Source of the DNA: Betaproteobacteria bacterium
GTDB taxonomy: Bacteria; Pseudomonadota; Gammaproteobacteria; Burkholderiales; Thiobacillaceae
Direction of reading: 5' to 3'
DNA length: 64,000 bases
Assembly: GCA_020061585.1 (NCBI GenBank)
Contig: JAGUXX010000201.1
Coordinates: forward strand, 4,575 to 68,574
The notes under the pieces are model-generated. The model was not told the DNA's origin and made no database searches. It worked only from the letters and a program-made list of their open reading frames with translations. Below, piece by piece: positions 20,424-51,951 of this stretch. The position numbers and the translations under genes were made by a program. The number at the start of each line of letters is the position of its first letter. Position 1 is the stretch's first letter.

Positions 20424-23400
20424 TCAAGGCAGCCATGCTCGCGCCCAGACATCCAGATGGTCTTCCAGCATCCAGTTGCGCTCGACATGGTCGCGCAATG
20501 CATCGCCTTGCTTGGCCAGCGCATCCAAATCAGCCACGTGGGAGCGGACGGCATCAATCCAGTCCTTGTAGCGGTTCTTCACCCGAGTTACCGGAAAATC
20601 GCCGCGATACGGGGTTATGTCGGAACAAATCACCGGCCAACCAAGAATGCCGTATTCCAGGAGCCGCAAATGGCTCTTGGCATGGTTGAACGGTACATCT
20701 TCGAGCGGCGCCAGAGCCAGATCGAGATTCAAACTGGCGAGACGAGCCGGGTACGCCTCAACAGTGACCGAAGCCATGAATTCGACGTGTTGACGCACCC
20801 CTTGCGGGCAAAGTCCCATGAACACCCATTCAATTTCATCCCTGGTCGCCAGCACCACATCGCGGATCAGGGCCAGATCACCATCATGCGAGACACTGCC
20901 GGCCCAGCCAACGCGCGGTTTTCGCCCTTGACCGCGCTTCGAGGTGATATCGCCCCAGACGGCCCGCTCCAGATAGTTCGGGACGACCCGGATATCCGGG
21001 TTGAAGCCGCGATACTGCTCGGCGAGGTAATCGGTGGCGACGACAAACCGGTCGCACAGGCCGAGCGCCTTGCGTAAACGCTTGTTGAGACCTTTGACAT
21101 CGACGTTCTTGCGCAATTGATTGTTCAGTTGCACATTGGTGATCAGATCATCGAGCTCATAGACGCGCAGAGCCTGGGTATGGCGGGAATATTCCTCCAT
21201 CACCTCGATCTGCGACCAACTGATCTGTCGTTGCATGATCAAGGTATCCGGCGACAGGCGCTCAAGCTCCGGAATACTCAGATGCACCAGGGTGTCCCAG
21301 CCCTGGACCAGTCCGGCGCTTGTCAACGCGCGCAGCGGAGCGATGATGCGGTATTCGCCGCAGCCGTTGCGGTCTCCCGGGTGCGCCAGGACTCGCGGCA
21401 AGGGACGTACCTCCGGGTCCTGAAGCAGCCAAGGGGCGATCTCGATATCGAATGGATCGCCCGACAATGTCAGATTGCGGTTATAGGCCGGATCAAAGGC
21501 GATGCGCCTGCCCCAGCGTGAGAACATGACGCGCTCGGCCGGGGTCGATTTGTGCAATGCGTTGCTGTTGACGGCCAAAGCCTTGCCCTGGTCGTCGGGC
21601 TCGGCCGGCGGTGGCGTCATATGTTCCTGCAGCAAAACCGCATAGGGCGTCCATACGACACGTCTTTCCGCCCGCCATGCCTTGAGGCAGTAGTCGACAT
21701 CGCTGTAGCCGCCGGCGAGGTCGGTTTCATCGAAACCGCCTAGCTCATCGAACAGTTCTTTCTCCGTCAGCATGCAAGTTGCCGACACAGCGGATGGATT
21801 GTTCGGCGCCTGGAGTTGACCAAAGTAGCCCAGAGCATCATGCGGCGCATGCAAATCATGCAGCCCGGCTGGGCTGCCGCCCAACCCCAGGATGTAGCCG
21901 GCGAAGGAAATCTTGCCGTCAAGGCCGACGGTCTTGGCCCCGACCACGCCAACATCGGCCTGTACAACGTAGCCCAGCATCTCGTCTAGCCAGTCTCGAC
22001 GAAACGGGGCGATGGCGTCGGACAGGAACAGCAGATATTGTCCGCGCGCCGCTCTGGCGCCGGCGTTGATCAAGGCCGGCAGATTCGCGCCTCGCGGCTG
22101 AGTGATCACTTGTATGGCATCGTTATTCATGCCTCGCAGGCTGCCGAGGAAGGACCGGGTATCCGCATCGTCGCTGTCCTGATCCACAACGATAATCTGC
22201 CATTTCTTGTGATCGGTATTTTCGACGATGGCGCCGACGCAGCGTTGCAAGTAGGAACCGCCGTTCAGGGTGGGGATGATTATCGAGACGGTTTCTTCAC
22301 CGCTTACCCGATAACGGACGTGGAAGGTGCCGACGGGGAAATCGTTTGCCTCGATGTCGACCGCCAGCTTCAGGCGGTCGCAGTGAGCGGCCAACGCAGT
22401 TTTCCGGAGATCGATGATTTCCTCGTCGGACAACTGGTTTTGACCACTATCCGCCGTCCGGTGATAGAGCACGTCGGCTATATGGCCGAACCCCCGAGCG
22501 CCGACGGCTTCGAAAGCACGCAAGGTCAGGTCGTACAGCTCGATGCCCTCGAAAGCTTGGTTCATCCCGGCCAGACGCTCCAGCAAGTCACGCCGAAACA
22601 GGAGACCGGCGCCCAGTGCGTATGGCGCCGAACGAAGCATTTCGATCGAGAAATCCAGCTTGAAATAGGGATGCTCGGTTTCGCCTGTCCCGCTCAGATT
22701 ATCCTCATCCGGGTAGACCACTTCCCATTCAGGATGCCTGCCGATACTTTCCGCCAAGGTGCGCAGGGCGTGGGGCGCCAGGCAATCGCCAGCGGCCATG
22801 ATCGCGAACCAGTCGAAATTTCCGTCCCGAATGACACGATTGAGGGAGTCGCAGAAACCCTTGCTGGTCAAGGTCAGCCAGCGCAACTCTTCGGTATCGA
22901 TGAATCCAGGCGGCGCCGGAGTGCGCGACAGTATGCTGACCGTCCAGCGAGAGTATGTCTGCCCAGCGATCGATTCCAGCGTCCGCGCCAAGGTATCGAC
23001 TTGGTCATCCGGCAAGGAAATGACCAGGTGGAATTTCGGATGGGGTTGCCGCCATTCCGGATTTTCATCAAGCGGAGCGGACGCATCCCGCTCGGAAGCA
23101 CGGGAGGACTTCCACAGTTGGTAGCGGACATCGGCTGGCGACGTTACCGACTGCGTCGACTTCAGTTTGCTGGCCATGACCTCTCGGACGTGGCTGGGCA
23201 AGCGCGCAGCGGTTACTTCCAGGAAGCCCTTGACAAAATCGAAGCCATGTTGATCTCCACGAGCCCAAACTTCGCGACATCTGGCCTGGGTATGATCAAT
23301 CAATGCCTCGATGTGCTGCCAGGAATATTGCTGCTGCTGATCGATTCTCGCCACGGCGTCGCCCAGACTGGAGCGCGCCTTGATCAACGCGTCCGGCTCG

Positions 23401-24155
23401 TGCGCCAACGCGATCCCCCCCTCGGCCAGATGCGGATCATCCGCCTTGGGATACCAATAATCGGTAGCAACCAGCAAGACCGGGCAACCGCAGGCAAGCG
23501 CCTCGGTGATGATGGCCGATGGCTCGTAACAATACAGCGCCTCGGCGCCGCGCAGGATGGACGCGATTTCTTCCGGCGGCCTGGGAATGTCTTGGCAAAG
23601 GCTGGTCTGCGACGCATGCTCCGGCCGCACCTTGCCACCAAAAGCAAGGTATTTGTGGGCATAGAAGCATCCACCATGACGCTTGCCATCATCGGGGTTG
23701 TCGAGGTTATTGAATATTCGAGTATCGACGCTCGGGATATTCAACGCACTGCCCTGCATGCCTTCCGGCAGGCACCAGATGTTGTAATAGTAGATCAGGT
23801 CATCTTTTGGGAACGTCGTATCGCCGCCAAGATGACCGGGACGGTTGAGCAACCAGCGCGCGGTCACCGGGGTCGCAAGCGGGCTTCCGGAAATCACCTC
23901 CGGATACAGAGCAATCGGGAGGCGTCCAGTCTGATAATGATTGCTGACGATTTCCTGCGTCAGACGCGGCGTTCGAAGGTATCCAGAGACAACTTTGGCG
24001 TTGACCAAATAGGCTTCCATGCCGAGTTCGTTCAGCGCGTGGCACAGGTAATGCAGGCATCGAATCCCGGCGGAGGTATGCCGGTAATCCGCCGAATAAA
24101 TATAATAGGGCGATCGGGTCGCCCGAAACAGACTGAGTTTATGTCCTGGATTCAA
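20424..24155 (-). CDS. Multi-domain glycosyltransferase (1243 aa): N-terminal GT-like domain, two GT2 domains, C-terminal GT-B (GT1/GT4-like) domain
   Basis: First GT2 signature: FHLVISLPDDQ...SIAGQTYSRWTV...AAGDCL. Second GT2 signature: VSIIIPTLNGGSYLQRCVGAIVENT...VVDQDSDD...LFLSDAI. The C-terminus has the GT-B motif KSHLRLLEYGILGWPVICSD. The start codon is TTG (the only candidate). Confidence 0.8.
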   Translation of the reverse strand: MNPGHKLSLFRATRSPYYIYSADYRHTSAGIRCLHYLCHALNELGMEAYLVNAKVVSGYLRTPRLTQEIVSNHYQTGRLPIALYPEVISGSPLATPVTARWLLNRPGHLGGDTTFPKDDLIYYYNIWCLPEGMQGSALNIPSVDTRIFNNLDNPDDGKRHGGCFYAHKYLAFGGKVRPEHASQTSLCQDIPRPPEEIASILRGAEALYCYEPSAIITEALACGCPVLLVATDYWYPKADDPHLAEGGIALAHEPDALIKARSSLGDAVARIDQQQQYSWQHIEALIDHTQARCREVWARGDQHGFDFVKGFLEVTAARLPSHVREVMASKLKSTQSVTSPADVRYQLWKSSRASERDASAPLDENPEWRQPHPKFHLVISLPDDQVDTLARTLESIAGQTYSRWTVSILSRTPAPPGFIDTEELRWLTLTSKGFCDSLNRVIRDGNFDWFAIMAAGDCLAPHALRTLAESIGRHPEWEVVYPDEDNLSGTGETEHPYFKLDFSIEMLRSAPYALGAGLLFRRDLLERLAGMNQAFEGIELYDLTLRAFEAVGARGFGHIADVLYHRTADSGQNQLSDEEIIDLRKTALAAHCDRLKLAVDIEANDFPVGTFHVRYRVSGEETVSIIIPTLNGGSYLQRCVGAIVENTDHKKWQIIVVDQDSDDADTRSFLGSLRGMNNDAIQVITQPRGANLPALINAGARAARGQYLLFLSDAIAPFRRDWLDEMLGYVVQADVGVVGAKTVGLDGKISFAGYILGLGGSPAGLHDLHAPHDALGYFGQLQAPNNPSAVSATCMLTEKELFDELGGFDETDLAGGYSDVDYCLKAWRAERRVVWTPYAVLLQEHMTPPPAEPDDQGKALAVNSNALHKSTPAERVMFSRWGRRIAFDPAYNRNLTLSGDPFDIEIAPWLLQDPEVRPLPRVLAHPGDRNGCGEYRIIAPLRALTSAGLVQGWDTLVHLSIPELERLSPDTLIMQRQISWSQIEVMEEYSRHTQALRVYELDDLITNVQLNNQLRKNVDVKGLNKRLRKALGLCDRFVVATDYLAEQYRGFNPDIRVVPNYLERAVWGDITSKRGQGRKPRVGWAGSVSHDGDLALIRDVVLATRDEIEWVFMGLCPQGVRQHVEFMASVTVEAYPARLASLNLDLALAPLEDVPFNHAKSHLRLLEYGILGWPVICSDITPYRGDFPVTRVKNRYKDWIDAVRSHVADLDALAKQGDALRDHVERNWMLEDHLDVWARAWLP

Positions 24156-24209
24156 ACTTGGTTCAACCCGAAATCAATGGGAGATTTTCGCCTCAAGGAG
24201 ATTCGCGCC

Positions 24210-25670
24210 TCAACCGACATACACCAAAACTTGCGTTTTGGCATCGGCATATTTTGCGATCTCGTTCACAATATCGTTCTTGTGAAATACCGACGTCACC
24301 AAAATAACATCCGGAGCAAGTTCGGAAATCATCTTGTAGGAATAAACCTGATGGCCGGATACCGATTTTCCTTGAACCGAGCCACTGCGATCGAGAAAAC
24401 CGATCATGGTGCCCCTGCCGACATCCGGATCGGAGAGGATCTCGACAGAAAGCGGTGTCGCCGGGGCGATCATGACACGCTTGCCGGCCAGTGACCAGGC
24501 GCTATCGCCCTCCATGGTCCCCGCTTTGACTCTCAGCGGCCCGGTCGCAAATAACGTGTGCTCGCTCGCCGCTGGCTCGTCACCGTTGCGGAAATCTTGC
24601 AGGTGCAAGAGCGGATCGCCGACTTTGTACTCCGGTTCCAGCAACTTGATTCTGTCCAGAACCTGTTGCATCAGATTGCGGCCATTCTGAATCACGACCG
24701 AAAGGAAAGATTCCGTGAAATGAACAGCAGTCAGGCCATGTCTTTTCAACAAAAGATAGGTCTTGGCATACGCATCGATATGTTCGGAATAATCGTAAAC
24801 ACCGCGCTCAAACTGATGTTTATACTTGTCGGCCAGCGGAAAAAAATCGAATCCTAGATAAATTTTCTGCGGACGGATTGCCAGCATCGAATAGACAAAA
24901 CCAGCCACATCGTCCTCGCCGCAGTTGCCGTCGGAAAATATGTATTTCACCGCAAGCATGCCGCGACCCTGGCTGCCCGCCACTGAATAACGGGCCAAAT
25001 TTTCGATCACTTTCAAAAACTTGTCGCTTTTCTTGATTTTCCGGTATGTGGAGGGCGTACCGGCATCAAGCGAAACAATCAGCCATGAAATGGTGCCGTC
25101 AGCCAAGGCATCGAAGATCGATTGCCGGTACCTGAGGCCATTCGAATAGAGGCGCACACGGATGGCGCGCGACTTGAAATAATCAAGATATCGATCCAGA
25201 TCCTTGAGCAGGCTCGGCTCGCCACCGTTGAAATCGACGCAGGAATCCCAATCCACCACCTCCGGGGCAAAACGCTCAAGAATCGACAAGGCATCATATC
25301 GTGCATTCTTGAAATTATCCGCCTGAGTAAATCCACAGAAGCTGCAGCGCAAATTGCATGTACTGAAGTGAGCCAGGTCGATGAAGCCAAGGTTTTCAAA
25401 ACCAACATCCTTGAATTTTTTGTGTTCGACTTTCAGGCACTTCTTGCAACTGATATCGCTATGGTCATCGTTGAGTTTCTGGAACAGTTCCTTGCGTTTG
25501 TCGACGATCATTTCCCGGGTAATTTCCAGGCCTTCGGCCTCATCCACGGTCCAATAGAACGGTGAAACCATCACACTGAAACAACATGCACGGATGCCAT
25601 CCGGCCCCAGCCTCAGGCCGCTTTCGATTCGAGAGCATGTCTTCACGACATCGTCGGCAGCGAATTTCAT
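24210..25670 (-). CDS. Radical SAM enzyme with a C-terminal Rossmann-like (putative NDP-sugar-binding) module
   Basis: CX3CX2C motif (STCNLRCSFCGF) and GGEPSL. The C-terminal segment GKRVMIAPA...IGFLDRSGSVQGKSVSGHQVYS...PDVILVTSVFHKNDIVNEI resembles the C-terminal domain of NDP-hexose C-methyltransferases. The gene is visibly richer in AT than its neighbours. Confidence 0.8.
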   Translation of the reverse strand: MKFAADDVVKTCSRIESGLRLGPDGIRACCFSVMVSPFYWTVDEAEGLEITREMIVDKRKELFQKLNDDHSDISCKKCLKVEHKKFKDVGFENLGFIDLAHFSTCNLRCSFCGFTQADNFKNARYDALSILERFAPEVVDWDSCVDFNGGEPSLLKDLDRYLDYFKSRAIRVRLYSNGLRYRQSIFDALADGTISWLIVSLDAGTPSTYRKIKKSDKFLKVIENLARYSVAGSQGRGMLAVKYIFSDGNCGEDDVAGFVYSMLAIRPQKIYLGFDFFPLADKYKHQFERGVYDYSEHIDAYAKTYLLLKRHGLTAVHFTESFLSVVIQNGRNLMQQVLDRIKLLEPEYKVGDPLLHLQDFRNGDEPAASEHTLFATGPLRVKAGTMEGDSAWSLAGKRVMIAPATPLSVEILSDPDVGRGTMIGFLDRSGSVQGKSVSGHQVYSYKMISELAPDVILVTSVFHKNDIVNEIAKYADAKTQVLVYVG

Positions 25671-25704
25671 GGCGCCATCATCTCCTCAATGGACAATATT
25701 TCTA

Positions 25705-27183
25705 TTAATGAATCGCGCATGTATCGTTGCTTTCGGTAACTGTCGAACCAGGCTGACAATCTTCGACGAACATGTCCGACGACCCATGCAGGTCAGCCAA
25801 CTCCTTCCACGAGATCATCGGCATGGCGGTCGAGTCGAGACGTAACGAAATCATTTTCTTGATACCGTCTTCATGATCCCGCTCGCTGCTCAGGATAATC
25901 GCATCGATCGATTTCTCAAGCGCTCCAAGTTGTGCGTGGGGCAAGACCGGCACGCCGAAAACACAGGCGCCGATCCGAGCCGGGCTGGAATCGACACACG
26001 CCACGACTTCGACACCGGACCGCAAGGCATCCAGCACCAGCAGATAGGCCGTAAACATGCTGCCGACGATCACCACCCGTTCAAGGCCTTCATTGCGCGA
26101 GAAAAGCGTCCGTCCCTGGTGGATGGCGCGCAGCCAGGCCCGGTAAGCACGTCGCGCCCCACCCCTGGCCTCGACCAGATCCAGCCCGACCAAAGTCTCC
26201 GCGGAAAGCGTTGTGTCCAATCCCAACCCTGCCAGCAATATCTCGAAAGGCAGCGCCGCATCGACCGCTCTGGATTCCACCTGAACAGACCTGACCCAGC
26301 TCGATCTGAGGCTGCTTACTGCGTCCAGCAATATCTTGTCGGAAGGCTGCCGGGGATTTTTGAACAGGAAATCCTGGGCTTTGAAGCGTGCCGAGAAACC
26401 ATGGATCGATGCGGCGTATCGCTGCAGATTGGCATCGCGGCGACTCTTCTTGAGCAAATGTTGCGCGACCTCGACCAATTCGACCAAAGGAGCGCTCTGG
26501 TCGACATTCCTGGACTCCTGTCCGACATGTTGCCGATATTTGAGCAAGGGATCACCCAGCATGGCGACGGGGTGTCGCATATTGAGCAGGAACAGCACGC
26601 CGATGTCGCCACTCGAAACATATCTCGGTTGCGCTGCCCTGACGATCGGGCCGCTGCGCTTTACCAGCGCATCACGCCTGAACATGCAGGTCGGGGTCGG
26701 GAACCACAGCTTTTCGTCCAGATAGGTCGGGATATAGTCGCCTGCGCTAAAAACCCGATCTTCTTCAAAGTCATATAGTTTCGGCTGTATGGTCTGCCCG
26801 ATATCGTCTATCAGACCAACATTGGTTGCGACGCAAGCCAGTTCGGGATGCGCGGCAAAAAAATGCATCTGGCGCTCGACCATCGTCGGCTCCAGAACAT
26901 CGTCATCGTGCGTTGCCAGAAAATACTCTCCCCGGCTCATCCACAGCCCACGATTGAAATTGAAGCTCGCATTGCATCCCGGGGGCTGCCTGACGTAAGT
27001 CAATCTCGAATCCTTATAGCCAAGGACCAGATCCGCCGTCTGGTCCTGGCTATGGTTATCAAGAACCAATAGCTCGAAATCGGAATAGGTTTGCGACAGG
27101 ATGGAATCCAGAGTTTCGCGCAGATAGCCGCTATTTCCTCTGTTATAAGTCAGCAAGGCGATTGTGAGCTTGACGTGTGCCAT
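25705..27183 (-). CDS. GT2-family glycosyltransferase fused to a C-terminal Rossmann-like module (paralog B)
   Basis: The start is taken at MAHVKLTIALLTYNRGNSGYLRETLDSILSQTYSDFELLVLDNHS (GT2), with THDDD. C-terminal module: [45 protein letters not shown]...[13 protein letters not shown]. Confidence 0.8.
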   Translation of the reverse strand: MAHVKLTIALLTYNRGNSGYLRETLDSILSQTYSDFELLVLDNHSQDQTADLVLGYKDSRLTYVRQPPGCNASFNFNRGLWMSRGEYFLATHDDDVLEPTMVERQMHFFAAHPELACVATNVGLIDDIGQTIQPKLYDFEEDRVFSAGDYIPTYLDEKLWFPTPTCMFRRDALVKRSGPIVRAAQPRYVSSGDIGVLFLLNMRHPVAMLGDPLLKYRQHVGQESRNVDQSAPLVELVEVAQHLLKKSRRDANLQRYAASIHGFSARFKAQDFLFKNPRQPSDKILLDAVSSLRSSWVRSVQVESRAVDAALPFEILLAGLGLDTTLSAETLVGLDLVEARGGARRAYRAWLRAIHQGRTLFSRNEGLERVVIVGSMFTAYLLVLDALRSGVEVVACVDSSPARIGACVFGVPVLPHAQLGALEKSIDAIILSSERDHEDGIKKMISLRLDSTAMPMISWKELADLHGSSDMFVEDCQPGSTVTESNDTCAIH

Positions 27184-28606: not shown

Positions 28607-29742
28607 CGGGCGAACGCACGGATAGCCGCAATGACATGATCTTGAGCGGCATCATCGAGGTGCGGCCACATGGGCAAGCTGAGCACCTCATCCGCCAAGC
28701 TTTCCGCGACGGGGAAAGCGCCGCGCTGGTGCCCCAGATCAAGGTAGGCTGCCTGCAGGTGGGGCGGAATCGGGTAGTGCGTCTGCGTCTGGACCCCTCG
28801 GTTCGCCAACCACTCGGTCAGTGTCGCCCTTTGAGTCGTTCGAATAACGTAGAGATGCCAGACATGGTCATTGCCCGCCGGCACTTCCGGCAGGACAAGA
28901 GCGGTGTCCGCCAGCCCCTGTCTGTAGCGGTCCGCCAGCCTTTTTCTACTTGCATTCCAGCCATCCAGATAGCGCAGTTTCACCCCAAGCACGGCGGCCT
29001 GGATCGGATCCAGGCGACTGTTGAAACCGCGCTCCTCATGGACATATTTCCGGCACGAACCATAGTTGCGCAAACGTCGCAGCCGTTCCGCCAGCTCGGG
29101 GTCGTTACAGGTCACCGCGCCGCCGTCGCCCATTGCGCCCAGATTCTTGGTCGGGTAGAAACTCCAAGCGACCGCATCGCCATGCGCGCCAATCCGGCGG
29201 TCTCCGTAATACGCCCCATGGCACTGGGCGGCATCCTCAAGCACCTTCAAGCCATGACGCTTTGCCAAGGCGATGATCGCATCCATATCGGCGGGCATAC
29301 CGTAGAGATGCACAGCTAATATTGCCTTGGTCCGCTCCGTCAACGCGGCTTCAATCCGCAGCGGATCGATCAGAAAGCCGGGCAGTGATGGTTCGACAGG
29401 TACCGGGATAGCGCCACAGTGACTGACGGCCAACCAGGTCGCGATAAAGGTGTGGGATGGAACGATCACCTCATCGCCGGGCCCGATTCCCATTGCCCGC
29501 AAAGCCAGATGCAGCGCATCGAGACCGCTGCCCACGCCGATGCAGTGGGTCGCCCCGGTATAGACGGCAAACTCACGTTCGAATGTCTCCACTTCCTCGC
29601 CGAGGATGAAGCGCGCGGATTCGACTACACGCCTGATGGCGTTGTCGACGGCTCCGACCAGCTCCGAATCGGCACAAGCCAAATTGACAAAGGGCACGTC
29701 CAGGCAGCATCCAGACTTCATGTCGTCAGGCCCGATAACCAT
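28603..29742 (-). CDS. DegT/DnrJ/EryC1/StrS-family PLP-dependent sugar aminotransferase
   Basis: [44 protein letters not shown], and [16 protein letters not shown] (the PLP Lys). The start could be 29742 or 29721. Confidence 0.88.
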
Positions 29743-43960: not shown

Positions 43961-45462
43961 ACCATCCAGTAAGTCAGGAGTGTCTTGCGATCCTTGTTCT
44001 GATTGATTCGGTCATCGACATAGAAGGAATCTTTCGGATCGTGGGTGGTGGAAATCTCTTCGATGATCGACCCGGTGGGCGATACGAAGGAATGCCGCAC
44101 GCCGGGTTCCACGGTCTGAACGTCGCCCGCCTTCAACACGCGTGGTTGGCCGTCCAACAGCATGTTCACCTCGCCGCGCAGGACGTGGAAGGTTTCTTCC
44201 TTGATGTGGTGGTATTGCTCGGGGTGCGTCTGGCCCGGCAGACTGACCAGCAGCTTCTTGCAATAGCCCCGGTTGACCACGGTAATCAGAACCAGACCCG
44301 TACGCTCGAACTCGTCGAGTCCGTAATGGTGCGAAATCTCCAGATCGGCGCTGCCTGGAACGATGATGCGGGCTTCCTCCAGCATCGACTTGACGCGCTG
44401 AGCAATCTCCCAGATCTTGGCCCGACGGTCTTCGCGTGTCGTGTTGTCCGGCGCTATCGGCGCATTCGCCTGGATATCGACCGCGGCGGTATAGACAGCA
44501 TATTTTGACCAGTCGTTGGCGGTGTACTGACCTTCCGCCGGCGGAAAGGCGAAATAGGTGTCATCCGGCTTTACAACGGTACCGGCGGCGATTGGACGGC
44601 GCGCAAACACGCCTCGACGCAAAGAGCGCAGGCTGGCCGCTTCGCGAGGGTTGACCGGCGGACGCGCATCCGCGGCGCCACACATGCGCAGTGCGCGCGT
44701 CGCTTCGGTCAGCCAGGCGAACATCTGCTCGGGGCTGACTGAATAGTTGTTCAGCGGATAGGCCGCAGTGGGCAATCCGACGTGCTTCTCGAACAGATTC
44801 GCGCCCTTGGCCACAGCCAGTTTGATGATATCGGTATTGCCCGGGTCTTCATGGCTGGACAAACCAATGCGCACGCCTGGATAGCGTTGCTTCAGGAAAT
44901 CAATCTGGGACAGGTGCATGTCCTGTTCGGAAGTCGGATATTCACCCACGCAATGCAGGATGGCGAATTCCTTGTCACGGTGCATCAGAAAGCTGACCAC
45001 CCGGTCCATGTCCTCGACGCGGGCACCCGCCGTGGAGGCGATGATGGGTTGCTGGCAGCGTACGACACGTTCCAGCAATGGCCAATCGGTGAAGGAACAA
45101 CTGGCGATCTTGATGATGTCCAGCCCCTGATCTTCGATCACGTCCACGGAAGGCTCATCGAAGGGAGTTGCCATGGCCAGAAAGCCGTTGGCTCGCATTT
45201 CGGCGACCAGACGGTCGAAATCGGCACGGCTCAGGCGGGTTTCGGAAAATCGCTTGACGTACTTGATGTCGTCCCGACCTTGCGCATCGGGATGGATAAA
45301 GCTGTCCAGATCGCGATACTGCAACTTGAAAGCGAAGCGAAACTGACCAAACGCGCGGCAAACTTCGCCAAAGCGCTGGATGATGTCAAGGCCGTGCCGC
45401 ACATCCCCCATATGGTTGTTGGCCATTTCAAGGACAACAAGATTTTCCGGGATTAGCTTCAT
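43957..45462 (-). CDS. NeuB-family (sialic-acid-synthase-like) PEP-condensing enzyme with a SAF domain and a C-terminal cupin domain
   Basis: The N-terminus VLEMANNHMGD...IIKIASCSFTDWPLLE is typical of NeuB/SpsE. A SAF-like segment RRPIAAGTVVKPDD follows. The C-terminal cupin segment is GQTHPEQYHHIKEETFHVLRGEVNMLLDGQ...VEPGVRHSF. Confidence 0.75.
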   Translation of the reverse strand: MKLIPENLVVLEMANNHMGDVRHGLDIIQRFGEVCRAFGQFRFAFKLQYRDLDSFIHPDAQGRDDIKYVKRFSETRLSRADFDRLVAEMRANGFLAMATPFDEPSVDVIEDQGLDIIKIASCSFTDWPLLERVVRCQQPIIASTAGARVEDMDRVVSFLMHRDKEFAILHCVGEYPTSEQDMHLSQIDFLKQRYPGVRIGLSSHEDPGNTDIIKLAVAKGANLFEKHVGLPTAAYPLNNYSVSPEQMFAWLTEATRALRMCGAADARPPVNPREAASLRSLRRGVFARRPIAAGTVVKPDDTYFAFPPAEGQYTANDWSKYAVYTAAVDIQANAPIAPDNTTREDRRAKIWEIAQRVKSMLEEARIIVPGSADLEISHHYGLDEFERTGLVLITVVNRGYCKKLLVSLPGQTHPEQYHHIKEETFHVLRGEVNMLLDGQPRVLKAGDVQTVEPGVRHSFVSPTGSIIEEISTTHDPKDSFYVDDRINQNKDRKTLLTYWMV

Positions 45463-45547: not shown

Positions 45548-46234
45548 TCATCCCGCGCTCGCGTCAGCGAAAAAATCCCCCAGGTTCTTGAGATCGTCCG
45601 GCAAGGCAATCTTGTGCCAAGGCAGAGCCAGACCCCAGGCATCCGTATCGCCGCCATAACCCCAGGTCACCGCGACGAAGCTCATGCCATTGGCCTGCGC
45701 GGCCACGCCATCCTCACGGGTATCGCCGATATAGACCGTTCTTTCCGGATCGATCGATTGCTCCTGAAGCAGGCGTTGCAGCATGTCCGCCTTGCTCGCG
45801 TATCCCACCGGAATGCCGTCCTGACTGTAAACCGACTTGAAATAGCGCTCCCAGCCTTGGGCCTGGAGTATTTTACGAGTCGGCAGTAAGCGTTTGTTCG
45901 TTGCCAGATGCAAGCTTTGGCGATTCTCGTACAACTGCGCCAGCACGTCCGATACGCCCGGAAAGGGATGCGTGATCAAAGCCACCTCGGCGTCATAGCG
46001 ATGTTTGAAATCTTTCGCCAGAGCATCGAGCGCGACGACATCGTCAACTCCGGCGATCCTGGCCAGGGTCGCTTTCAACGGGGGACCGATCAGGTGGGGG
46101 CCGATGCTGACCACCGGCGCAAAACCAGCCTCCACCACCACCGCCTCAAGACATGCAAGTATCGCCGGCGCGGAGTCCACCAAGGTGCCGTCCAGGTCAA
46201 ACACCAACGCGTCGCAACGCCCCCCCGCCCTCAA
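45548..46234 (-). CDS. HAD-superfamily phosphatase (phosphoglycolate-phosphatase-like)
   Basis: [10 protein letters not shown] (DxDxT), LATNK, and [12 protein letters not shown]. The start is uncertain. TTG 46234 overlaps the rfbH stop (TTGA), and the track ORF's longer N-terminus overlaps rfbH. Confidence 0.75.
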
Positions 46235-47544
46235 AACCGCACCCCGAGAAATGTCTCGATCTTCTCGGCGACGAAATCGAGCATGGTAGCGCTCAAACCC
46301 GGATAAACGCCCAACCAGAAGGTATTCGCCATAACCGTATCGGTATTGTTCAACGAACCCGCGCAACGATAGGTCTTGTCCCGCATGTATGGTTGTCGGA
46401 GCAAATTTCCGGCGAACAGCAAGCGTGTGCCGATCTTGTATTGATCCAGGTATTTGAGCAGATCAACCCGATCAAAACCGACATCCTGTCTCAATGTAAC
46501 GGGAAACCCGAACCAGGAAGGCTCGGCGTGCTGCGTCGCCCCAGGCAAGATCAGGTGCTCCTGACAAGACGACAGGCGTTCGGACAACCCGTTGAAGTTC
46601 ATCCGGCGCGCGCTGACGAAGCCATCGAGCTTGTCCATCTGCGCCAAGCCGCAAGCCGCCTGCATATCGGTGATCTTCAGGTTGAAGCCCAAATGCGAAT
46701 AGATGTATTTGTGGTCATAACCTTCCGGCAGCTCCCCCAGCTTCCAGCAGAAACGCTGGCCGCAGGTATTGTCACGACCCGGCGCGCACCAGCAATCCCG
46801 CCCCCAGTCGCGAATCGATTCGATGGCGCGAACCAGCGTGTCATCGCTGGTGAACACCGCCCCGCCCTCGCCCATGGTGATGTGATGCGCCGGATAGAAA
46901 CTCAATGTCCCGATGTGCCCGAAGGTGCCGACATGCTGGCCGCGATAGGTCGAACCCAGGGCATCGCAACAATCCTCGATCACCCACAGGTTGTGCTTGC
47001 GCGCCAACGCCATGACGGCATCGAGATCAAACGGATTGCCCAGCGTGTGCGCCAGCATGATGGCGCGGGTACGCGGCGACACGGCGGCTTCAAGTTGCTC
47101 GGCGTCGATGTTGTAGGTGCCCAGGCGGACATCGACAAATACCGGCGTCATGCCATAGAGCAGAATCGGATTGACGGTGGTCGGAAAGCCGGCGGCCACG
47201 CTGATGACCTCATCGCCTGGGCGCAGCGCCCGGTCACCGAGCAGCGGCGAAGTGAGCGCGGCAAATGCAACCAGATTGGCCGACGAGCCGGAATTGACCG
47301 TACGGGCGTGGCGGCAGCCGATGAATTCGGCCAGACGCGTCTCCAGAGCGGCATTGAAACGCCCGGTCGTCAACCAACCATCCAGACTGGCGTCGACCAT
47401 ATTGACGAGTTCCTCCGCGCCGATCACCTTGCCGGACACGGGCACCGCGTCCTGGCCGGGCCGAAACGGCGTCGCATCAGCCTTGTCCAGCGCATATTCG
47501 CGGACCTGATCGAGTATCGCCAAACGTCGTTCTTCGAGGTTCAT
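46231..47544 (-). CDS. rfbH: CDP-6-deoxy-D-xylo-4-hexulose-3-dehydrase (RfbH/DdhC, E1-type)
   Basis: The start is taken at [17 protein letters not shown], which overlaps the rfbG stop (ATGA). It is DegT-fold with RfbH-specific features ([26 protein letters not shown]; [15 protein letters not shown], the Cys-rich Fe-S region). Confidence 0.88.
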
Positions 47545-48605
47545 GCTGAAAGCGCCATATAGTCTTCGATCTGGGTTTGGGTATAAGCGCGCATATCCGC
47601 GCCGGTCAGCCAGGCACGCTGCCAGTCGACGGTTTTTTCTAGCGCGGCCTGGATCCCGTATCGCGGTCTCCAGCCTAGTAGCGCGCGCGCCTGGCTGCTG
47701 TCCAGGGTCAGCAGACGCGCCTCGTGCGGCTGCTCGCCGGCCTCGGCCCGCCAGGTCGCGGTTTCGCCCCACGCTGACGCCAGTCGATCGAGCAATCCAG
47801 CGACCGACAACATCTCGGCGGCATCCGGCCCGAAGTTCCAGGCGCCGGCATGTTCACCGCGCAGCAGCCCCTCGGCGAGTCGCAGATACCCCGCCAGGGG
47901 TTCCAGAACATGTTGCCAGGGCCGCACGGCGGCGGGATTCCTGACGTTCAGCGCGCGCCCCGCCTGCCAGGCGCGCAAGGCATCCGGCACCAACCGGTCC
48001 GCCGCCCAATCGCCGCCGCCGATGACATTGCCGGCGCGCGCGGTGGCCACCTGGACTCGCCCGGCGAGGAAGGAATCGCGCCACGCAGAGGTAATGATCT
48101 CGGCGCAGGCCTTGCTGGCCGAGTACGGATCGCGGCCGCCCAGCGCGTCGGATTCCCGGTAGGGCCAGAGCCATTCCTGATTGCGGTAACACTTGTCGCT
48201 GGTGATCACCAGCAGCGCGCGAACCGAGTCGCAACCCCGCACGGCTTCCAGCAGGTTCATCGTGCCGACGACATTGCTGGTCAGAGTGCCGACCGGATCG
48301 CGATATCCTTCGCGCACCAGAGCCTGCGCCGCAAGATGCAACACCACTTCGGGTCGGGTTTGTTTTATGAACGAGGTCAAACAGGCCATATCGCGAAGAT
48401 CGCCGAGTTGCTGTTCGACCCCCTCGGCGACCCTGGCCGCGTCGAAAAGCGATGGCATGCTGGGCGGCGGCAAGGCAAAGCCGAACACCTTGGCGCCCAG
48501 TCGCTCCAGCCAGAGCGATAGCCAGCCGCCCTTGAAGCCGGTATGCCCGGTGACCAGTACCCGGCGCCCCCGCCAGATGTCCGGACTCACGCCCAGCAAC
48601 GCCAT
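47541..48605 (-). CDS. rfbG: CDP-glucose 4,6-dehydratase
   Basis: [28 protein letters not shown] (YxxxK), 354 aa, positioned between rfbF and rfbH. Confidence 0.9.
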
Positions 48606-49357
48606 GGCGCCTTGTTCTTCTGCCAGAGATCTTCCAACAGAACCTTGTCGCGCAGGGTATCCATGGCCTGCCAGAAACCGGTATGCGTAAAGGCGTTGAG
48701 CTCACCTTGCGCCGCCAGGGCGCGCATCGGCTCTTGTTCCCAGATGATGCCATCGTGCTCGATGTAGTCGAAGACCCCCGGTTCGAGGACAAAAAAGCCG
48801 CCGTTGATCCAGCCGCCGTCACCCAGCGGTTTTTCCTGGAATGAGAGTACTTTGCTGGCGCCGATTTCCAGTGCGCCATAACGCCCCGGCGGCTGCACGG
48901 CGGTCACCGTGGCCAGGCGTTGGTTCCGGCGATGGTGTTCAATCAGCGCTTGCAGATCGACATCGGAGACGCCATCACCGTAGGTGAAACAGAAGGTTTC
49001 GTCGCCCACATAATCTCGGATGCGCTTAAGACGCCCTCCCGTCATGGTGTCGTCACCCGTATCGACCAGGGTGACCTGCCAAGGCTCCGCATGCTGATGG
49101 TGGACATGCATGCGGTTGTTGCGCATGTCGAAGGTCACGTCTGACATATGCAGGAAGTAGTTGGCGTAATACTCTTTGATGACATAGCCTTTGTAGCCAA
49201 GGCAGACAACGAAATCATGTATTCCCTGGGCGGAGAAGATTTTCATGATATGCCAGATAATCGGCCGACCACCGATTTCGATCATCGGCTTGGGCTTGAG
49301 ATGAGACTCCTCGCTGATGCGTGAACCCATCCCCCCGGCAAGAATGACGCATTTCAT
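48587..49357 (-). CDS. rfbF: Glucose-1-phosphate cytidylyltransferase
   Basis: The start is taken at [39 protein letters not shown]. The hallmark RfbF/DdhA sequence runs throughout, 256 aa. Confidence 0.92.
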
Positions 49358-49493: not shown

Positions 49494-49865
49494 TCAGTTG
49501 CCGCTCAACCCGGAAGAAACATTCCGGTTGATGGAAATCAGGACATCGAGTTTTTCAGGCGAGGGGAAAGCCATGAGGTCATAGGTTCGCCTGTCGATGA
49601 ACAAGGACAGCGACAACAGATTTTTCTTGATCTCGACCGGCAAGGGATTCTCCGGGTCGGATATTTCAGTCTGGAAAAACGTCCAGACCCGTTGATTGAA
49701 GCGCAGCACGTCGTCAAGACGCTGTTCGAGTTCTGGCGAATTCCAGTTTGCCCTGACGTCGGCCAACAGGTTAGCGGATCTGGTCAACACTGACGCCTCC
49801 AACTCGCGACCGGCCAAGGTTGATTTCTCTACGGCCTGATAGGCATCAAGCGGGTTGACGGACAT
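49494..49865 (-). CDS. flaF: Flagellar biosynthesis regulator FlaF
   Basis: 123 aa, [27 protein letters not shown]...[38 protein letters not shown], matching alphaproteobacterial FlaF. Confidence 0.85.
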
Positions 49866-50244
49866 GATTGATAAGCTCCTGTTCGTATTGCATCAATTTC
49901 CGGGCAATCTTCAGCGCCTGATAGTATTTGCCGCAGGCGAGCTCGGCATTCAACTCGGCAAGCATTGACCGAGTGCTTGGCGCCGCATGCAGCACTTCGG
50001 TCATCAGCCCGGCATAACTGTTCTGGTAGTTCATCAGGTTCATCGGGTCCATGTACATAAGCTGGACGCACAGATAAATCCGTCCGCAGACCGTAGTCAC
50101 CTCGGCCTCGGTGAGCACATCCTTTTCGCGCAGCACGGGCACATCGTTGAGTATGCTGAATTCGACGTACCCCTCAACATTTTGCACCACCGCCCCCCCG
50201 ATAAAGACTTTCTCGTGAGGCTTCAGCGAAATTTTGAGGGGCAT
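49846..50244 (-). CDS. flbT: Flagellin translational repressor FlbT
   Basis: MPLKISLKPHEKVFIGGAVVQN...PVLREKDVLTE...YYQALKIARKLMQYE closely parallels Caulobacter FlbT. The ATG at 50244 is preferred over the TTG at 50250. Confidence 0.85.
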   Translation of the reverse strand: MPLKISLKPHEKVFIGGAVVQNVEGYVEFSILNDVPVLREKDVLTEAEVTTVCGRIYLCVQLMYMDPMNLMNYQNSYAGLMTEVLHAAPSTRSMLAELNAELACGKYYQALKIARKLMQYEQELINHVRQPA

Positions 50245-50246
50245 GG

Positions 50247-50948
50247 TCAAACTCCAACTCGCGACAAGCCGGATTGTCCCATCACCAGCGCCCGCGAGGA
50301 ATCGGCAAGACGCGCGGAAACTTCATTGATCAACTGCCCAACAGCCTCTTCCGTCGCCGGTAAAAGTGGCAAATCTGCATTGATTTTCTCCGGCAAAGCC
50401 TGCGCCCGCTTGTGCAGCGCAACGACGCCGGCATCCAGTTTCTCTTGCAGTTGCGTCAGTGCCGAGCCGAAAGCCAGAACGTCATCATCCGTGGCGGACA
50501 AGGCATCCAGCGACGGCAAAGCGGCTTCGCGCGGATAGAAAACCGCCTCGCTATCGCCTTTGACCGGCGGCACAACCATGGCCTCCAACTGCTGACGCAA
50601 GCCATTGATGCCATTGATATATTGCATACGCCCATCGTTGCCGGGCGGAAACGGCGGATAGTTTTTGATCAAGGCCACCGCCTCGCCAATGTCCTTGACG
50701 ATTTCTTTGACATCATCAAGCGCCTGGTCGGCTGCGCGGATGGATCGAGCATATTGCATCGCCTCATCCTTCTCCGACGCCAGGGCGACAAACTCGGTAA
50801 ATTTGGCCGTCGACTCAACCAAGTCCTTGTCAGCGCCGACAACTGATTGCGCACTGCTTTTGACAGCACCCGCTTGAGGCTCACTGACGCGGCCAAGCCC
50901 TTGGCTATATGCCAGATTGATGCTCGAGATTTCTTGCATCGTAGTCAT
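50247..50948 (-). CDS. Hypothetical protein (233 aa) between flagellin and flbT
   Basis: A clean ORF with codon usage consistent with its neighbours. It is acidic, looks helical, and has no TM segment or signal peptide. It carries the distinctive motif KNYPPFPPGNDGR. No family recognised. Confidence 0.5.
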   Translation of the reverse strand: MTTMQEISSINLAYSQGLGRVSEPQAGAVKSSAQSVVGADKDLVESTAKFTEFVALASEKDEAMQYARSIRAADQALDDVKEIVKDIGEAVALIKNYPPFPPGNDGRMQYINGINGLRQQLEAMVVPPVKGDSEAVFYPREAALPSLDALSATDDDVLAFGSALTQLQEKLDAGVVALHKRAQALPEKINADLPLLPATEEAVGQLINEVSARLADSSRALVMGQSGLSRVGV

Positions 50949-50964
50949 GACTACCCCCTATGGC

Positions 50965-50996
50965 AAAAACCCCGAGGCGAGAATCTCGCCCCGGGG
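50965..50996 (-). terminator. Strong rho-independent terminator after the flagellin gene
   Basis: The minus-strand RNA CCCCGGGGCGAG-AUU-CUCGCCUCGGGG forms a 12-bp stem with one G-U pair, followed by UUUUUG. It starts 28 nt after the flagellin stop and ends 17 nt before the next ATG. Confidence 0.75.
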
Positions 50997-51024
50997 CACA
51001 CCTTCAGACCTCAAGGACGAGCGT

Positions 51025-51843
51025 TTAGAACAACCGCAGCACGCCTTGGGCCGCCTGGGAGGCAAGTGACAACGACGTGGTACCCAATTGCTGGCGCGTT
51101 TGCAGCATCAGCATATTGGCGCCTTCCTCATTGATATCCGCGAGTGTCAACTTGTCGGCGCCTTCCTTCAAAGTATTCACCATATCGGTGGTGAAATCGA
51201 TACGGGTCTGGATGATCGCCAGGTTGGAAGCCAAGGTGGCCGAGTTTTCGCGCAAGGTGGTCAACGCGGTATTCAGCGTATCTTCAAGCGTATCCAGAGT
51301 TGTGCCAGTATCGCCCGCACCAAGCGTGCCAATGGAAAGATCTGTCGTGGTTGCGCCACTGCCAGAGACGGTCAGCGAATTGGTTCCATCCTCATTGAAG
51401 CTGACTTTCAGCGTAGTGCCATCCTGAAGGAAATTGACACCCTTGTAGCTTGCATCCGCCACCAAGGTATCCATTTGCGCCACAAGCGTATCAAACTGAG
51501 CCACTTGTTCGGCAGTGGCACCGGTCCCGGAAGTCTCGGCGCGCGCCTGGGTAATCACGCCTCGCAGATTCTCGATGAGGCTGGTAATCGCCGTCACACC
51601 CTTGTCAGCGGCCTTGATGGTCTGAACCGCTTCGTTCATCGCATCCTTGCGACCTTCCAGTTGGCCGGCACGGTCGGTATGACCTTTGGCGGCGAAAAAG
51701 TTGGCGGGGTTGTCGAGTGCCGAATTGATTTTCTTGCCGGTACTGAGGCGCTCTTGCGTCCGGTTCATGCTATTGGTGGTTTCTTGCAGGGAAACCAGCG
51801 TGGAACGCATTGATGCGGTCAGGGAGATGTCGTTCATTGCCAT
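51025..51843 (-). CDS. Flagellin (short, alphaproteobacterial LafA/Fla-like type)
   Basis: 272 aa. The N-terminus is LSTGKKINSALDNPANFFAAKG and the C-terminus is LMLQTRQQLGTTSLSLASQAAQGVLRLF. There is no large variable D2/D3 insert. Confidence 0.9.
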   Translation of the reverse strand: MAMNDISLTASMRSTLVSLQETTNSMNRTQERLSTGKKINSALDNPANFFAAKGHTDRAGQLEGRKDAMNEAVQTIKAADKGVTAITSLIENLRGVITQARAETSGTGATAEQVAQFDTLVAQMDTLVADASYKGVNFLQDGTTLKVSFNEDGTNSLTVSGSGATTTDLSIGTLGAGDTGTTLDTLEDTLNTALTTLRENSATLASNLAIIQTRIDFTTDMVNTLKEGADKLTLADINEEGANMLMLQTRQQLGTTSLSLASQAAQGVLRLF

Positions 51844-51924
51844 GATAAAACTCCTGTTCTAGGTTGATGTCCGGAAGGGATTCTCCCCTCCGTTGCCGCA
51901 ACTTGAATTGCCGCGGTTGAACCA

Positions 51925-51951
51925 CTTACGGCAGCATGAAAAAAAACTTTA
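51925..51951 (-). promoter_or_regulatory. Sigma-28 (FliA)-type promoter upstream of the flagellin gene
   Basis: The minus strand reads TAAAGTTT-N11-GCCGTAAG, against the consensus TAAAGTTT-N11-GCCGATAA. The -10 element ends about 80 nt upstream of the flagellin ATG. Confidence 0.7.

Follow-up and report, generated by a model that had tools for sequence, protein, structure and literature searches.

The window analysed here is a stretch of 64,000 nucleotides (nt) of contig JAGUXX010000201.1, and all positions given below are counted from its first letter. It contains 27 consecutive open reading frames (ORFs) on the minus strand, running from a flagellin gene (start at 51843) to the gene of a glycosyltransferase of 1243 amino acids (aa; stop at 20424). 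The sequence makes it very probable that this block constitutes a large, mosaic island for flagellin glycosylation, placed downstream of a module consisting of the flagellin gene, an ORF of 233 aa (orf233), flbT and flaF. Three independent lines support flagellin as the putative target, namely the homology of the glycosyltransferase to FgtA of Pseudomonas aeruginosa, the linkage of its homologs to flagellar genes across genomes, and a fixed site behind flaF which carries variable cargo in relatives. An original prediction made from the letters of the DNA had already proposed flagellin glycosylation for this block, and the same three lines speak in its favor.

The 1243-aa glycosyltransferase is built from a GT-B-like head (residues 1-296), a degenerate GT-A module (residues ~375-600), a GT2 module (620-845) and a C-terminal domain (~900-1243) held in common with FgtA. 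Its residues 378-1243 align with residues 854-1693 of FgtA (WP_010793909.1) at 41% identity (E-value 6e-164). The alignment comprises 866 residues, is colinear without rearrangement and reaches the terminal AWLP. We obtained this match from a tblastn search of plasmid records, where the replicon is one of P. aeruginosa with a flagellar region (locus L090; such handles are used where loci have to be told apart). WP_010793909.1 has a length of 1694 aa, is annotated as “CDP-glycerol glycerophosphotransferase family protein” (CDP, cytidine diphosphate) and is encoded between flgL and a B-type fliC, and the genes upstream of it (methyltransferase, HAD phosphatase, nucleotidyl (NTP) transferase) correspond to the PA1088-PA1091 arrangement. 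In PA1091 (FgtA) a GT2 glycosyltransferase is joined to a phosphotransferase, and a pa1091 mutant produces unglycosylated flagellin (PMC11833859). It is through FgtA that the glycosyltransferase of the window is homologous to an experimentally validated flagellin glycosyltransferase.

The two proteins differ in their heads. FgtA begins with a CDP-glycerol glycerophosphotransferase-like region of ~850 aa, a homolog of CD0244, and no similarity was found between the window protein and FgtA residues 1-850; in place of the N-terminal phosphotransferase region of FgtA it carries the GT-B-like domain of 296 aa. An AlphaFold2 (AF2) model of residues 1-296 has a mean predicted local distance difference test score (pLDDT) of 90 and a predicted template modelling score (pTM) of 0.86, and each of the 50 Foldseek matches listed for it is a sugar enzyme of the GT-B type and, with few exceptions, a glycosyltransferase; WaaG, PimA, MshA and a bacterial OGT homolog are among them. 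This head represents the signature of the glycosyltransferase family. In the relaxed Pfam scan residues ~375-600 gave sub-threshold GT2 matches only, residues 620-845 a clear GT2 domain. Homologs of the protein are annotated with Glyco_trans_1_4 and Glyco_trans_1_2, presumably over the C-terminal region, and a GT-B fold of the last ~340 residues of the window protein is suggested. Searches of the PDB sequences with the whole protein and with its C-terminal 344 aa returned generic GT-A matches or nothing, NCBIfam holds no curated family for it, and the segments of the block without an assignment gave sub-threshold matches only in relaxed Pfam scans. If the three further GT2 proteins are counted, two of which (461 and 492 aa) are paralogs with 51% identity, the island has up to seven transferase modules. 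As for the replicon which contains FgtA (NZ_CP131792.1, 846,886 bp), it is filed as a conjugative plasmid and holds the core flagellar region flgJ-fleR including fliC; it may be a megaplasmid with captured chromosomal DNA or a misassigned replicon.

A further argument arises from the genomic surroundings of homologs. One genome per GTDB species was scanned with two motifs of the N-terminal domain of the glycosyltransferase, which resulted in 80 loci (L002-L081). A locus was regarded as flagellar-linked if fliC, flaG, fliD, fliS, fliK or a small FlhB-like gene was located within 10 kb. Such a linkage was observed for 50 out of 80 loci, and for 38 out of 54 among the loci with full 10-kb flanks. 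By a rough estimate, the chance that a random stretch of 20-25 kb in a genome of 4-5 Mb covers the fliC region is well below 1%. The value of 50 out of 80 is a lower bound, because the window's own glycosyltransferase, being located 27 kb from the flagellin gene, would score negative. An ORF with at least six predicted membrane segments occurs in 10 out of 90 loci and an ABC-ATPase-like ORF in two out of 90. The original prediction had named synteny beside flagellin genes as one of its checks, and homologs consistently linked to exporters rather than to flagellin genes as one of its refutations; the scan yielded the former pattern and not the latter. The order in Pseudomonas peradeniyensis is glycosyltransferase, acyl carrier protein (ACP) synthase III, fliC, flaG, fliD, fliS, which recalls the islands of P. 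syringae and strain PAK. Homologs were also found in Acidovorax (L007, L051) and, adjoining fliC, in Pantoea (L029, L080). In the P. putida strains NBRC 14671 and 31303 (L056, L017) rfbFGH is followed by the FgtA-like glycosyltransferase, the NeuB-like synthase, the ThDP enzyme, an SDR and fliC. The modules that recur in flagellar-linked loci are RfbFGH, the NeuB-like synthase, the thiamine diphosphate (ThDP)-dependent enzyme, the short-chain dehydrogenase/reductase (SDR), the Nudix hydrolase together with the 630-aa radical SAM protein, and the pair of 461-aa and 492-aa GT2 proteins.

The position of the glycan genes is equally telling. They begin 136 nt past flaF, directly beside the filament genes in the order flagellin-orf233-flbT-flaF, and cassettes of differing content start directly 3' of flaF in the relatives L082, L087, L088 and L093. 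The closest of them is L082, whose flagellin falls into the same 90%-identity cluster. It has the series TPR-flagellin-orf233-flbT-flaF-rfbF-rfbG-rfbH in common with the window, at ~80% nucleotide identity over window positions 53269-46110, and the homology stops inside the HAD phosphatase gene, beyond which other genes follow. In Parasulfuritortus cantonensis (L087, GCA_004337445.1) flaF is followed by genes for a methyltransferase, a GT2 of 877 aa and a protein of 1839 aa that matches methyltransferase, RgpF and, faintly, sulfotransferase domains; in L088 by a Fem-like gene, three sulfotransferases, DegT and a 1218-aa GT2; and in L093 by an NTP-transferase, a dehydratase, DegT, an RmlC-like protein, a reductase, a methyltransferase, two radical SAM proteins and a GT1. 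At the far end, the islands of L085 and L086 close with a glycosyltransferase of 62% identity, then DUF2802-fliK-flhB-like-TPR, then GlnD. Locus L094 (10001-17275) contains the empty site, in which flaF-DUF2802-fliK-flhB-like is followed by GlnD on the opposite strand, and this is an argument that the island inserts right after flaF. No DUF2802, fliK or flhB-like gene is present in the window, which has lost or relocated them (compare positions 20389-20424). The junction of flaF and glycan genes is kept in relatives despite unrelated cargo, and close relatives exchange the content of the island cassette by cassette. The guanine-cytosine (GC) content within the block is mosaic as well, with 0.48-0.52 at 24-26 kb and 30-33 kb compared to 0.62-0.66 at 38-44 kb. 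This fits a cassette-wise assembly, as in enterobacterial islands (PMC4875605).

All 27 co-directional ORFs described in the original prediction are present at the positions it gave. About a dozen overlapping junctions, five of them by 4 nt, and a maximum gap of 136 nt had been reported; re-reading with the most likely start codons resulted in 12 overlaps, among them ATGA at 47541-44, TTGA at 46231-34, GTGA at 43957-60 and 37434-37, and ATGA at 28603-06. The widest gap indeed lies between flaF and rfbF, given ATG 49357 as the rfbF start, with which the product matches TIGR02623 end to end. Past rfbF no gap exceeds 88 nt and every gene points in the same direction. The glycan part comprises 23 genes and ~29 kb of the entire ~31 kb. 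While Pfam and NCBIfam confirmed each of the enzyme classes that had been named, the gene inventory had to be extended by the conserved orf233 in the interval between the flagellin gene and flbT, so that the non-glycan genes number four (flagellin, orf233, flbT, flaF). In a crude hydropathy scan none of the 27 proteins has more than one 19-residue window with a value of at least 1.6, and the single windows sit within soluble folds, in agreement with the predicted lack of transmembrane segments in the glycan genes. The predicted lack of exporter, initiating transferase and ligase also stands: no Wzx, Wzy, Wzz, ABC-exporter, WecA/WbaP or ligase domain was matched among the 27 proteins by Pfam or NCBIfam, and an ORF scan of the block, likewise a crude method, revealed no protein with at least six predicted membrane segments and no ABC-ATPase motif. 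The block has neither the flippase, polymerase or exporter nor the initiating phosphoglycosyltransferase of a Wzx/Wzy- or ABC-dependent polysaccharide locus.

With regard to transcription, a perfect match to the sigma-28 pattern, TAAAGTTT-N11-GCCGTAA, was found upstream of the flagellin gene. The pattern was modelled on the sigma-28 consensus, and the window was scanned tolerating up to three mismatches; no second credible site was found in it, the sole extra match having three mismatches and lying inside a gene. The hairpin after the flagellin gene, which the original prediction had singled out as the only convincing terminator, is strong, and the other terminator-like matches in the block are weak, intragenic and fewer than in shuffled sequences (14 compared to 16.7 and 12 compared to 18.4). 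Because the promoter and terminator matches are rarer than in shuffles, we derive no operon map from them. A GC-rich hairpin, GGGCGACCCGATCGCCC, with a moderately T-rich tail (24108-24124) is located within the glycosyltransferase gene, ~30 nt from its predicted 5' end. Residues 9-45 are conserved among glycosyltransferase homologs, which speaks for the upstream TTG as the true start and for a coding position of this hairpin.

The following steps are proposed from enzyme families as far as the sugars are concerned, and from homology and gene linkage for flagellin as the target. Soluble cytoplasmic enzymes would make several nucleotide sugars, with RfbF, RfbG and RfbH leading from glucose-1-phosphate to CDP-4-keto-3,6-dideoxyglucose and the electron donor of RfbH being supplied from elsewhere. 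The YerE/JanthE-like ThDP enzyme would then add a carbon branch at C4 with a 2-oxo acid as donor, probably a 4-hydroxy-2-oxo acid which the NeuB-like synthase encoded next to it would supply and from which the HAD phosphatase might remove a phosphate, before the SDR reduces the side chain. FdtA and the DegT aminotransferase could provide a 3-amino-3,6-dideoxy sugar, to be acylated by the Fem-like transferase and the ATP-grasp ligase, and the C-methyltransferase, an O/N-methyltransferase, the sulfotransferase and three radical SAM enzymes would add further changes. Finally, the three GT2 proteins and the four-module FgtA-like glycosyltransferase would build the glycan right on Ser/Thr residues in the central segment of flagellin. 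This assembly would take place before flagellar type III export and would need neither a lipid carrier nor a polysaccharide exporter. The central segment (residues 131-205) contains 32% Ser/Thr.

The genes of the CDP-3,6-dideoxyhexose pathway, RfbF, RfbG and RfbH, are present and all score above their NCBIfam equivalog cut-offs. The ThDP enzyme matches JanthE (8RPH) over the full length with 411 bits and 36% identity, compared to 261 bits for the best acetolactate synthase, and all acetolactate synthase models of NCBIfam stay below cut-off; it is nearer to YerE-like enzymes than to acetolactate synthases. Its ThDP motif reads SDG, that of JanthE CDG and the canonical one GDG. JanthE itself has been described as a carboligase of the YerE-like group, and the substrates it uses in nature are not known (PMC12188165). 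YerE, ErwE and MMAR_2332 attach branches derived from 2-oxo acids to CDP-4-keto-3,6-dideoxyglucose, and ErwE and MMAR_2332 prefer hydroxy-functionalised donors, according to a review of YerE-like enzymes (PMC12247030).

Among the 80 glycosyltransferase loci a NeuB-like gene is always accompanied by a ThDP gene (27 out of 27 loci, adjacent in 22), and in the four loci with a ThDP gene only, this gene is at most ~0.9 kb away from where the fetched stretch starts. In 13 loci the ThDP gene is found together with genes of the RfbFGH type, and the SDR is the commonest co-occurring gene (43 out of 80). A NeuB-type reaction (phosphoenolpyruvate plus aldehyde) yields a 4-hydroxy-2-oxo acid. Because of this product type and the strict pairing we propose that the NeuB-like synthase may make the donor for the ThDP enzyme. 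The synthase scores below the cut-offs for NeuB and PseI. A nonulosonic-acid pathway of the Maf/FlmG type was also considered and rejected, since the block contains no NeuA-type CMP-ulosonic acid synthetase and no Maf domain (Pfam), nor a FlmG transferase. RfbF/G/H, the YerE/JanthE-like enzyme and the NeuB-like synthase together predict a 4-C-branched 3,6-dideoxyhexose.

Our literature search found no paper that places such a branched sugar on flagellin, none in which flagellin glycosylation is connected with ThDP, CDP-glucose or radical SAM enzymes, and none that deals with the island type of P. putida. The review of YerE-like enzymes does not contain “flagell” (PMC12247030), and the pairing of NeuB-like and ThDP genes is not mentioned in the parts of this review and of the JanthE paper that were considered. 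A more daring and rather doubtful extension is that FgtA-linked flagellin islands would put long-chain 4-C-branched 3,6-dideoxyhexoses of the erwiniose/caryophyllose type on flagellin by means of the NeuB-like and JanthE-like pair, and that the chemistry of the three radical SAM enzymes on nucleotide sugars would be of an undescribed radical type. If this were true, it would, judging by the cited papers, be the first case of sugars branched at a tertiary alcohol on a protein, and the orphan JanthE-type enzymes would have a physiological role.

The set of FdtA, DegT, Fem-like transferase, ATP-grasp ligase, methyltransferases and sulfotransferase points to a 3-amino-3,6-dideoxy sugar with N-acyl, methyl and sulfate groups and is reminiscent of Fmt/Fcs/Fst in Acidovorax avenae K1 (PMC4622738); sulfotransferases recur in the relatives L087 (the faint match) and L088. 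The 630-aa radical SAM protein belongs to a family without a name, the members of which are 60-86% identical across genera and occur in fused or split forms, the radical SAM half (~370 aa) being a separate protein in many genomes. Its homologs recur with Nudix and SDR genes beside homologs of the glycosyltransferase. Foldseek matched its N-terminal half only (MoaA, PqqE, SkfB, BlsE). The C-terminal ~230 aa (residues ~380-630, window 38528-39283) are modelled with a pLDDT mostly above 90 and have no Pfam match, and Foldseek gave no family for this domain because the radical SAM half dominated the matches. A Rossmann-like C-terminal module of ~110 residues is common to the C-methyltransferase, the 507-aa and 486-aa radical SAM proteins and the two paralogous GT2 proteins (window 24213-24683, 25705-26300, 27221-27860, 30536-31040 and 40987-41400). 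Pfam assigns it to Methyltransf_14 in two of the five proteins, with a weak match in a third, and it may serve as a common nucleotide-sugar-binding handle.

Several observations weigh against flagellin glycosylation and have to be kept in mind. The glycosyltransferase gene is 27 kb away from the flagellin gene, and the strong terminator parts flagellin from all downstream genes. The source organism is known only from a metagenome contig, and the evidence is that of sequence. No ferredoxin-reductase-type protein (RfbI/DdhD, E3) is encoded among the 27 ORFs; in P. putida (L017), too, no reductase gene fits, because less than 200 nt remain between the rfbH match and the glycosyltransferase (tblastn coordinates). 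The role proposed for the NeuB-like synthase is derived solely from its linkage to the ThDP gene, since no CMP-ulosonic acid synthetase accompanies it. Thirty out of the 80 homolog loci have no flagellar gene inside 10 kb, many of them being short contigs or islands that extend past the locus edge. Finally, partial homologs of the glycosyltransferase occur on plasmid p5 of Azospirillum brasilense (L091), beside Wzm/Wzt-like genes in a cluster of the ABC-transporter O-antigen type, and on the E. coli plasmid pYLMB20b (L092), in a capsule-like rhamnose cluster with rfbBDAC. From these we conclude that the GT-A catalytic core is not specific for flagellin and is common to polysaccharide synthesis.

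These homologs lead to the explanation that the product of the 23 glycan genes is a surface polysaccharide, for example an O-antigen or capsule, made by the ABC-transporter route, the exporter and the initiating transferase being encoded elsewhere and the position beside flagellin being incidental. Large multi-module glycosyltransferases are typical of ABC-transporter-dependent O-antigen synthesis, one member of a 90% cluster is labelled “O-antigen biosynthesis protein” by its Joint Genome Institute (JGI) source, and the review describes YerE-branched sugars from lipopolysaccharide (LPS) or lipooligosaccharide (LOS) only (PMC12247030). We regard this explanation as unlikely. The Azospirillum protein has 34% identity and covers the two middle GT-A modules alone (residues 370-892), and the E. 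coli homolog has 28% identity, is split into a GT2 and GT1 pair and has no N-terminal domain, whereas FgtA aligns at 41% up to the C-terminus. It is the full architecture, rather than the core, which tracks flagella: among the 80 loci of proteins that have the N-terminal domain 50 are flagellar-linked, and these proteins almost never lie beside multi-membrane-segment or ABC proteins, and the flaF junction is kept in relatives whatever the cargo.

A division of labor is less probable still, but it deserves consideration. The front end (rfbFGH and neighbors) and the FgtA-like glycosyltransferase would act on flagellin, and the low-GC cassettes (the 507-aa radical SAM protein with the 229-aa methyltransferase, and the 486-aa radical SAM protein) together with the extra GT2 proteins would act on another protein or a small molecule. 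The mosaic GC content would agree with two targets, the closest relative L082 shares the front end only, and seven GT-like modules exceed what the mono- to trisaccharide glycans of flagellin described in the cited papers would need (PMC3927599, PMC11833859). What argues for a single pathway is that the genes are co-directional with the short gaps and many overlaps given above, and that homologs of the 461-aa/492-aa GT2 pair, of the 507-aa and 486-aa radical SAM proteins, of FdtA and of the DegT aminotransferase (DegT379) adjoin this glycosyltransferase family in other genomes (L046, L059-L061, L072, L040). That the block encodes a glycosylated secondary metabolite and no surface structure at all seems very improbable to us: enzymes of the radical SAM, ThDP, ATP-grasp and C-methyltransferase classes often take part in sugar pathways of natural products, but Pfam reveals no polyketide synthase, nonribosomal peptide synthetase, terpene scaffold enzyme, transporter or resistance gene in the block, and the flagellar linkage across orders is strong.

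Viewed as a flagellin glycosylation island, the block is of a known kind, namely an island around a glycosyltransferase of the FgtA family. The b-type island of P. aeruginosa (PA1088-PA1091) similarly has soluble enzymes (methyltransferase, HAD phosphatase, NTP transferase) in the filament gene region, with four genes compared to 23 here; its glycan is a deoxyhexose-phospho-dimethylthreonine, a structure which the window island does not predict. The fgt1/fgt2 and viosamine island of P. syringae and the a-type island of PAK are linked to flagellin, contain glycosyltransferases of ~1,170 aa (VioT/OrfN 1,173 aa) and make tailored 6-deoxy amino sugars with N-acyl and methyl groups (PMC3927599). 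Fgt1, Fgt2, VioT and OrfN are likened to the window protein by description, and these systems use dTDP sugars (rhamnose, viosamine), whereas the window island starts from CDP-glucose. The Acidovorax avenae K1 island (Fgt, Fmt, Fcs, Fst) has the same accessory types, that is, a methyltransferase, the “carbamoyl-phosphate-synthase-like” ATP-grasp protein Fcs and a sugar aminotransferase (PMC4622738), but consists of four genes without CDP-sugar, ThDP or radical SAM enzymes. With the yersiniose, erwiniose and caryophyllose pathways the window has RfbF/G/H (DdhA/B/C) and a YerE-like ThDP enzyme in common, and its SDR could act as YerF. These sugars are described from LPS or LOS and not from protein, and DdhD (E3) is missing from the block. 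Enterobacterial islands are mosaic, horizontally exchanged and strain-variable, some with genes for CDP-4-keto-6-deoxyglucose, and extend over 2.4-23 kb with 1-18 proteins (PMC4875605), compared to the ~29 kb and 23 genes found here.

New in the window are the host lineage and the linkage to FlbT/FlaF, the size, the GT-B-like head, the predicted branched sugar and the three radical SAM enzymes. The flagellin glycosylation locus of Campylobacter is larger in gene number, and the judgement of the original prediction that the enzymology here is far richer than in Campylobacter was overstated. Flagellin glycans have effects on the assembly of the filament, on surface properties and on immune recognition, and probably on attack by phages. 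The FgtA-type system would extend beyond Pseudomonas into iron- and sulfur-oxidising Betaproteobacteria with up to 23 genes, and the CDP-3,6-dideoxyhexose pathway, a YerE/JanthE-like enzyme and a NeuB-like synthase would be tied to the flagellum. In such an island one may look for the substrates that JanthE-type biocatalysts use in nature, and for sugar chemistry of radical SAM enzymes that is new. As the core module also occurs in cultured bacteria (P. putida group, Curvibacter, Azonexus, Rhodocyclus), the prediction can be tested without the source organism. We see the main value in this conserved flagellum-linked RfbFGH/NeuB-like/YerE-like module and its cultured carriers, more than in one more island.

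Features of the block and of the adjoining TPR gene, in window coordinates
Feature	Position	Strand	Basis
Sigma-28-type promoter match TAAAGTTT-N11-GCCGTAA	51926..51951	-	pattern scan, perfect match
Flagellin, 272 aa, short type	51025..51843	-	Pfam Flagellin_N, Flagellin_C
Intrinsic terminator, 12-13 bp GC-rich hairpin then TTTTT, directly past flagellin stop	50965..50996	-	sequence read
Conserved 233-aa ORF between flagellin gene and flbT, no Pfam/NCBIfam match	50247..50948	-	
FlbT, flagellin synthesis regulator	49846..50250	-	PF07378, E 1e-39
FlaF, flagellin synthesis regulator	49494..49865	-	PF07309, E 1.5e-31; NF009435 above cut-off
RfbF, glucose-1-phosphate cytidylyltransferase	48587..49357	-	TIGR02623, 462 bits vs cut-off 300
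RfbG, CDP-glucose 4,6-dehydratase	47541..48605	-	TIGR02622, 477 bits vs cut-off 278
RfbH (E1), CDP-6-deoxy-4-hexulose 3-dehydrase, CxCx7C motif	46231..47544	-	NF011936, 731 bits vs cut-off 423; motif from translation
HAD-family phosphatase	45548..46234	-	Pfam HAD_2
NeuB-like 2-ulosonic acid synthase + SAF + cupin fusion	43957..45462	-	Pfam NeuB, SAF, Cupin_2; PDB 3g8r E 1e-131
YerE/JanthE-like ThDP-dependent carboligase, SDG ThDP motif	42119..43960	-	best PDB match JanthE 8RPH
Nucleoside diphosphate (NDP)-hexose C-methyltransferase	40987..42126	-	Pfam Methyltransf_13 (below cut-off), Methyltransf_23, Methyltransf_14
Nudix hydrolase, start codon uncertain	40440..41003	-	PF00293; weak GDP-mannose mannosyl hydrolase match
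Radical SAM/SPASM-like enzyme, 630 aa	38528..40420	-	Pfam; AF2 mean pLDDT 82
SDR epimerase/reductase, candidate YerF-like side-chain reductase	37434..38510	-	Pfam Epimerase
GT2 glycosyltransferase, 277 aa	36604..37437	-	PF00535
ATP-grasp ligase (“carbamoyl phosphate synthase-like”)	35263..36561	-	Pfam ATPgrasp_Ter; PRK12767 below cut-off; PDB PylC, Ddl matches
309-aa protein, faintly GH130/GH32-like	34331..35260	-	sub-threshold matches only
FemAB/GNAT-like acyl or aminoacyl transferase	33300..34331	-	PF13480; weak TIGR03019
FdtA-type NDP-4-keto-6-deoxyhexose 3,4-ketoisomerase	32879..33289	-	PF05523, E 2e-58
SAM-dependent methyltransferase, 229 aa	32148..32837	-	Pfam Methyltransf_25, Methyltransf_11
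Radical SAM/SPASM enzyme, 507 aa, Methyltransf_14-like C-terminal module	30536..32059	-	Pfam; C-terminal module alignment
Sulfotransferase	29726..30490	-	PF13469, PF00685
DegT-family sugar aminotransferase (second in block)	28603..29742	-	PF01041, E 2e-120
GT2 glycosyltransferase, 461 aa, Rossmann-like C-terminal module	27221..28606	-	PF00535
GT2 glycosyltransferase, 492 aa, paralog of 461-aa GT2	25705..27183	-	PF00535
Radical SAM enzyme, 486 aa, weak Methyltransf_14-like C-terminus	24210..25670	-	PF04055; PF08484 E 0.0045 on C-terminal 157 aa
FgtA-family multi-module glycosyltransferase, 1243 aa	20424..24155	-	Pfam; AF2/Foldseek; FgtA alignment
TPR protein, conserved neighbor of flagellin gene, divergent here	52024..53271	+	Pfam TPR families

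FlbT and FlaF are, to our knowledge, regarded as alphaproteobacterial, and in Caulobacter they act at flagellin control, with FlmG as the pseudaminic acid transferase. The short flagellin (~270 aa), FlbT/FlaF and a TPR protein at the flagellin locus resemble that system; the differences are a betaproteobacterial host and the absence of a Maf/FlmG-type transferase and a CMP-nonulosonate synthetase from the block. An alphaproteobacterial host, which FlbT/FlaF might suggest, was considered and rejected on the basis of protein identities and conserved gene order. Exact-sequence look-ups of the glycosyltransferase and of the flagellin gave no record. The closest named flagellins are those of Parasulfuritortus cantonensis (62% identity) and Thiobacillaceae, the methionyl-tRNA synthetase (MetRS) and GlnD are 80% and 60% identical to those of a Gallionellaceae metagenome-assembled genome (MAG), and the gene order from the glycosyltransferase to GlnD-orf216 is common to the window, the Gallionellaceae MAG (with MetRS in the same stretch) and Parasulfuritortus MAGs. 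Judged by these genes, the host is a betaproteobacterium near Gallionellaceae/Thiobacillaceae despite its FlbT/FlaF. A literature search returned no paper in which FlbT, FlaF and Betaproteobacteria are mentioned together.

Outside the block the window contains housekeeping genes. The GlnD gene is convergent with the glycosyltransferase gene, the TPR gene is divergent from the flagellin gene, and further out are genes for tRNA synthetases, a beta-CASP nuclease, ScpAB and DnaE. The TPR protein has an identity of 78% in L082 and of 46-49% in L022, L048, L085 and L086, always at the flagellin/GlnD locus. A TPR protein annotated by Pfam also lies upstream of flagellin in L093 and L094, relative to which the TPR gene of the window is inverted. 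An ORF of 210-244 aa without family occupies the orf233 position in L082, L087, L088, L093 and L094. The combination of FlbT/FlaF, short flagellin and this conserved ORF is found in Betaproteobacteria in the window (49494-50948) and in L087, L088, L093 and L094, and the cultured Parasulfuritortus cantonensis carries the same set of flagellin, ORF, FlbT and FlaF.

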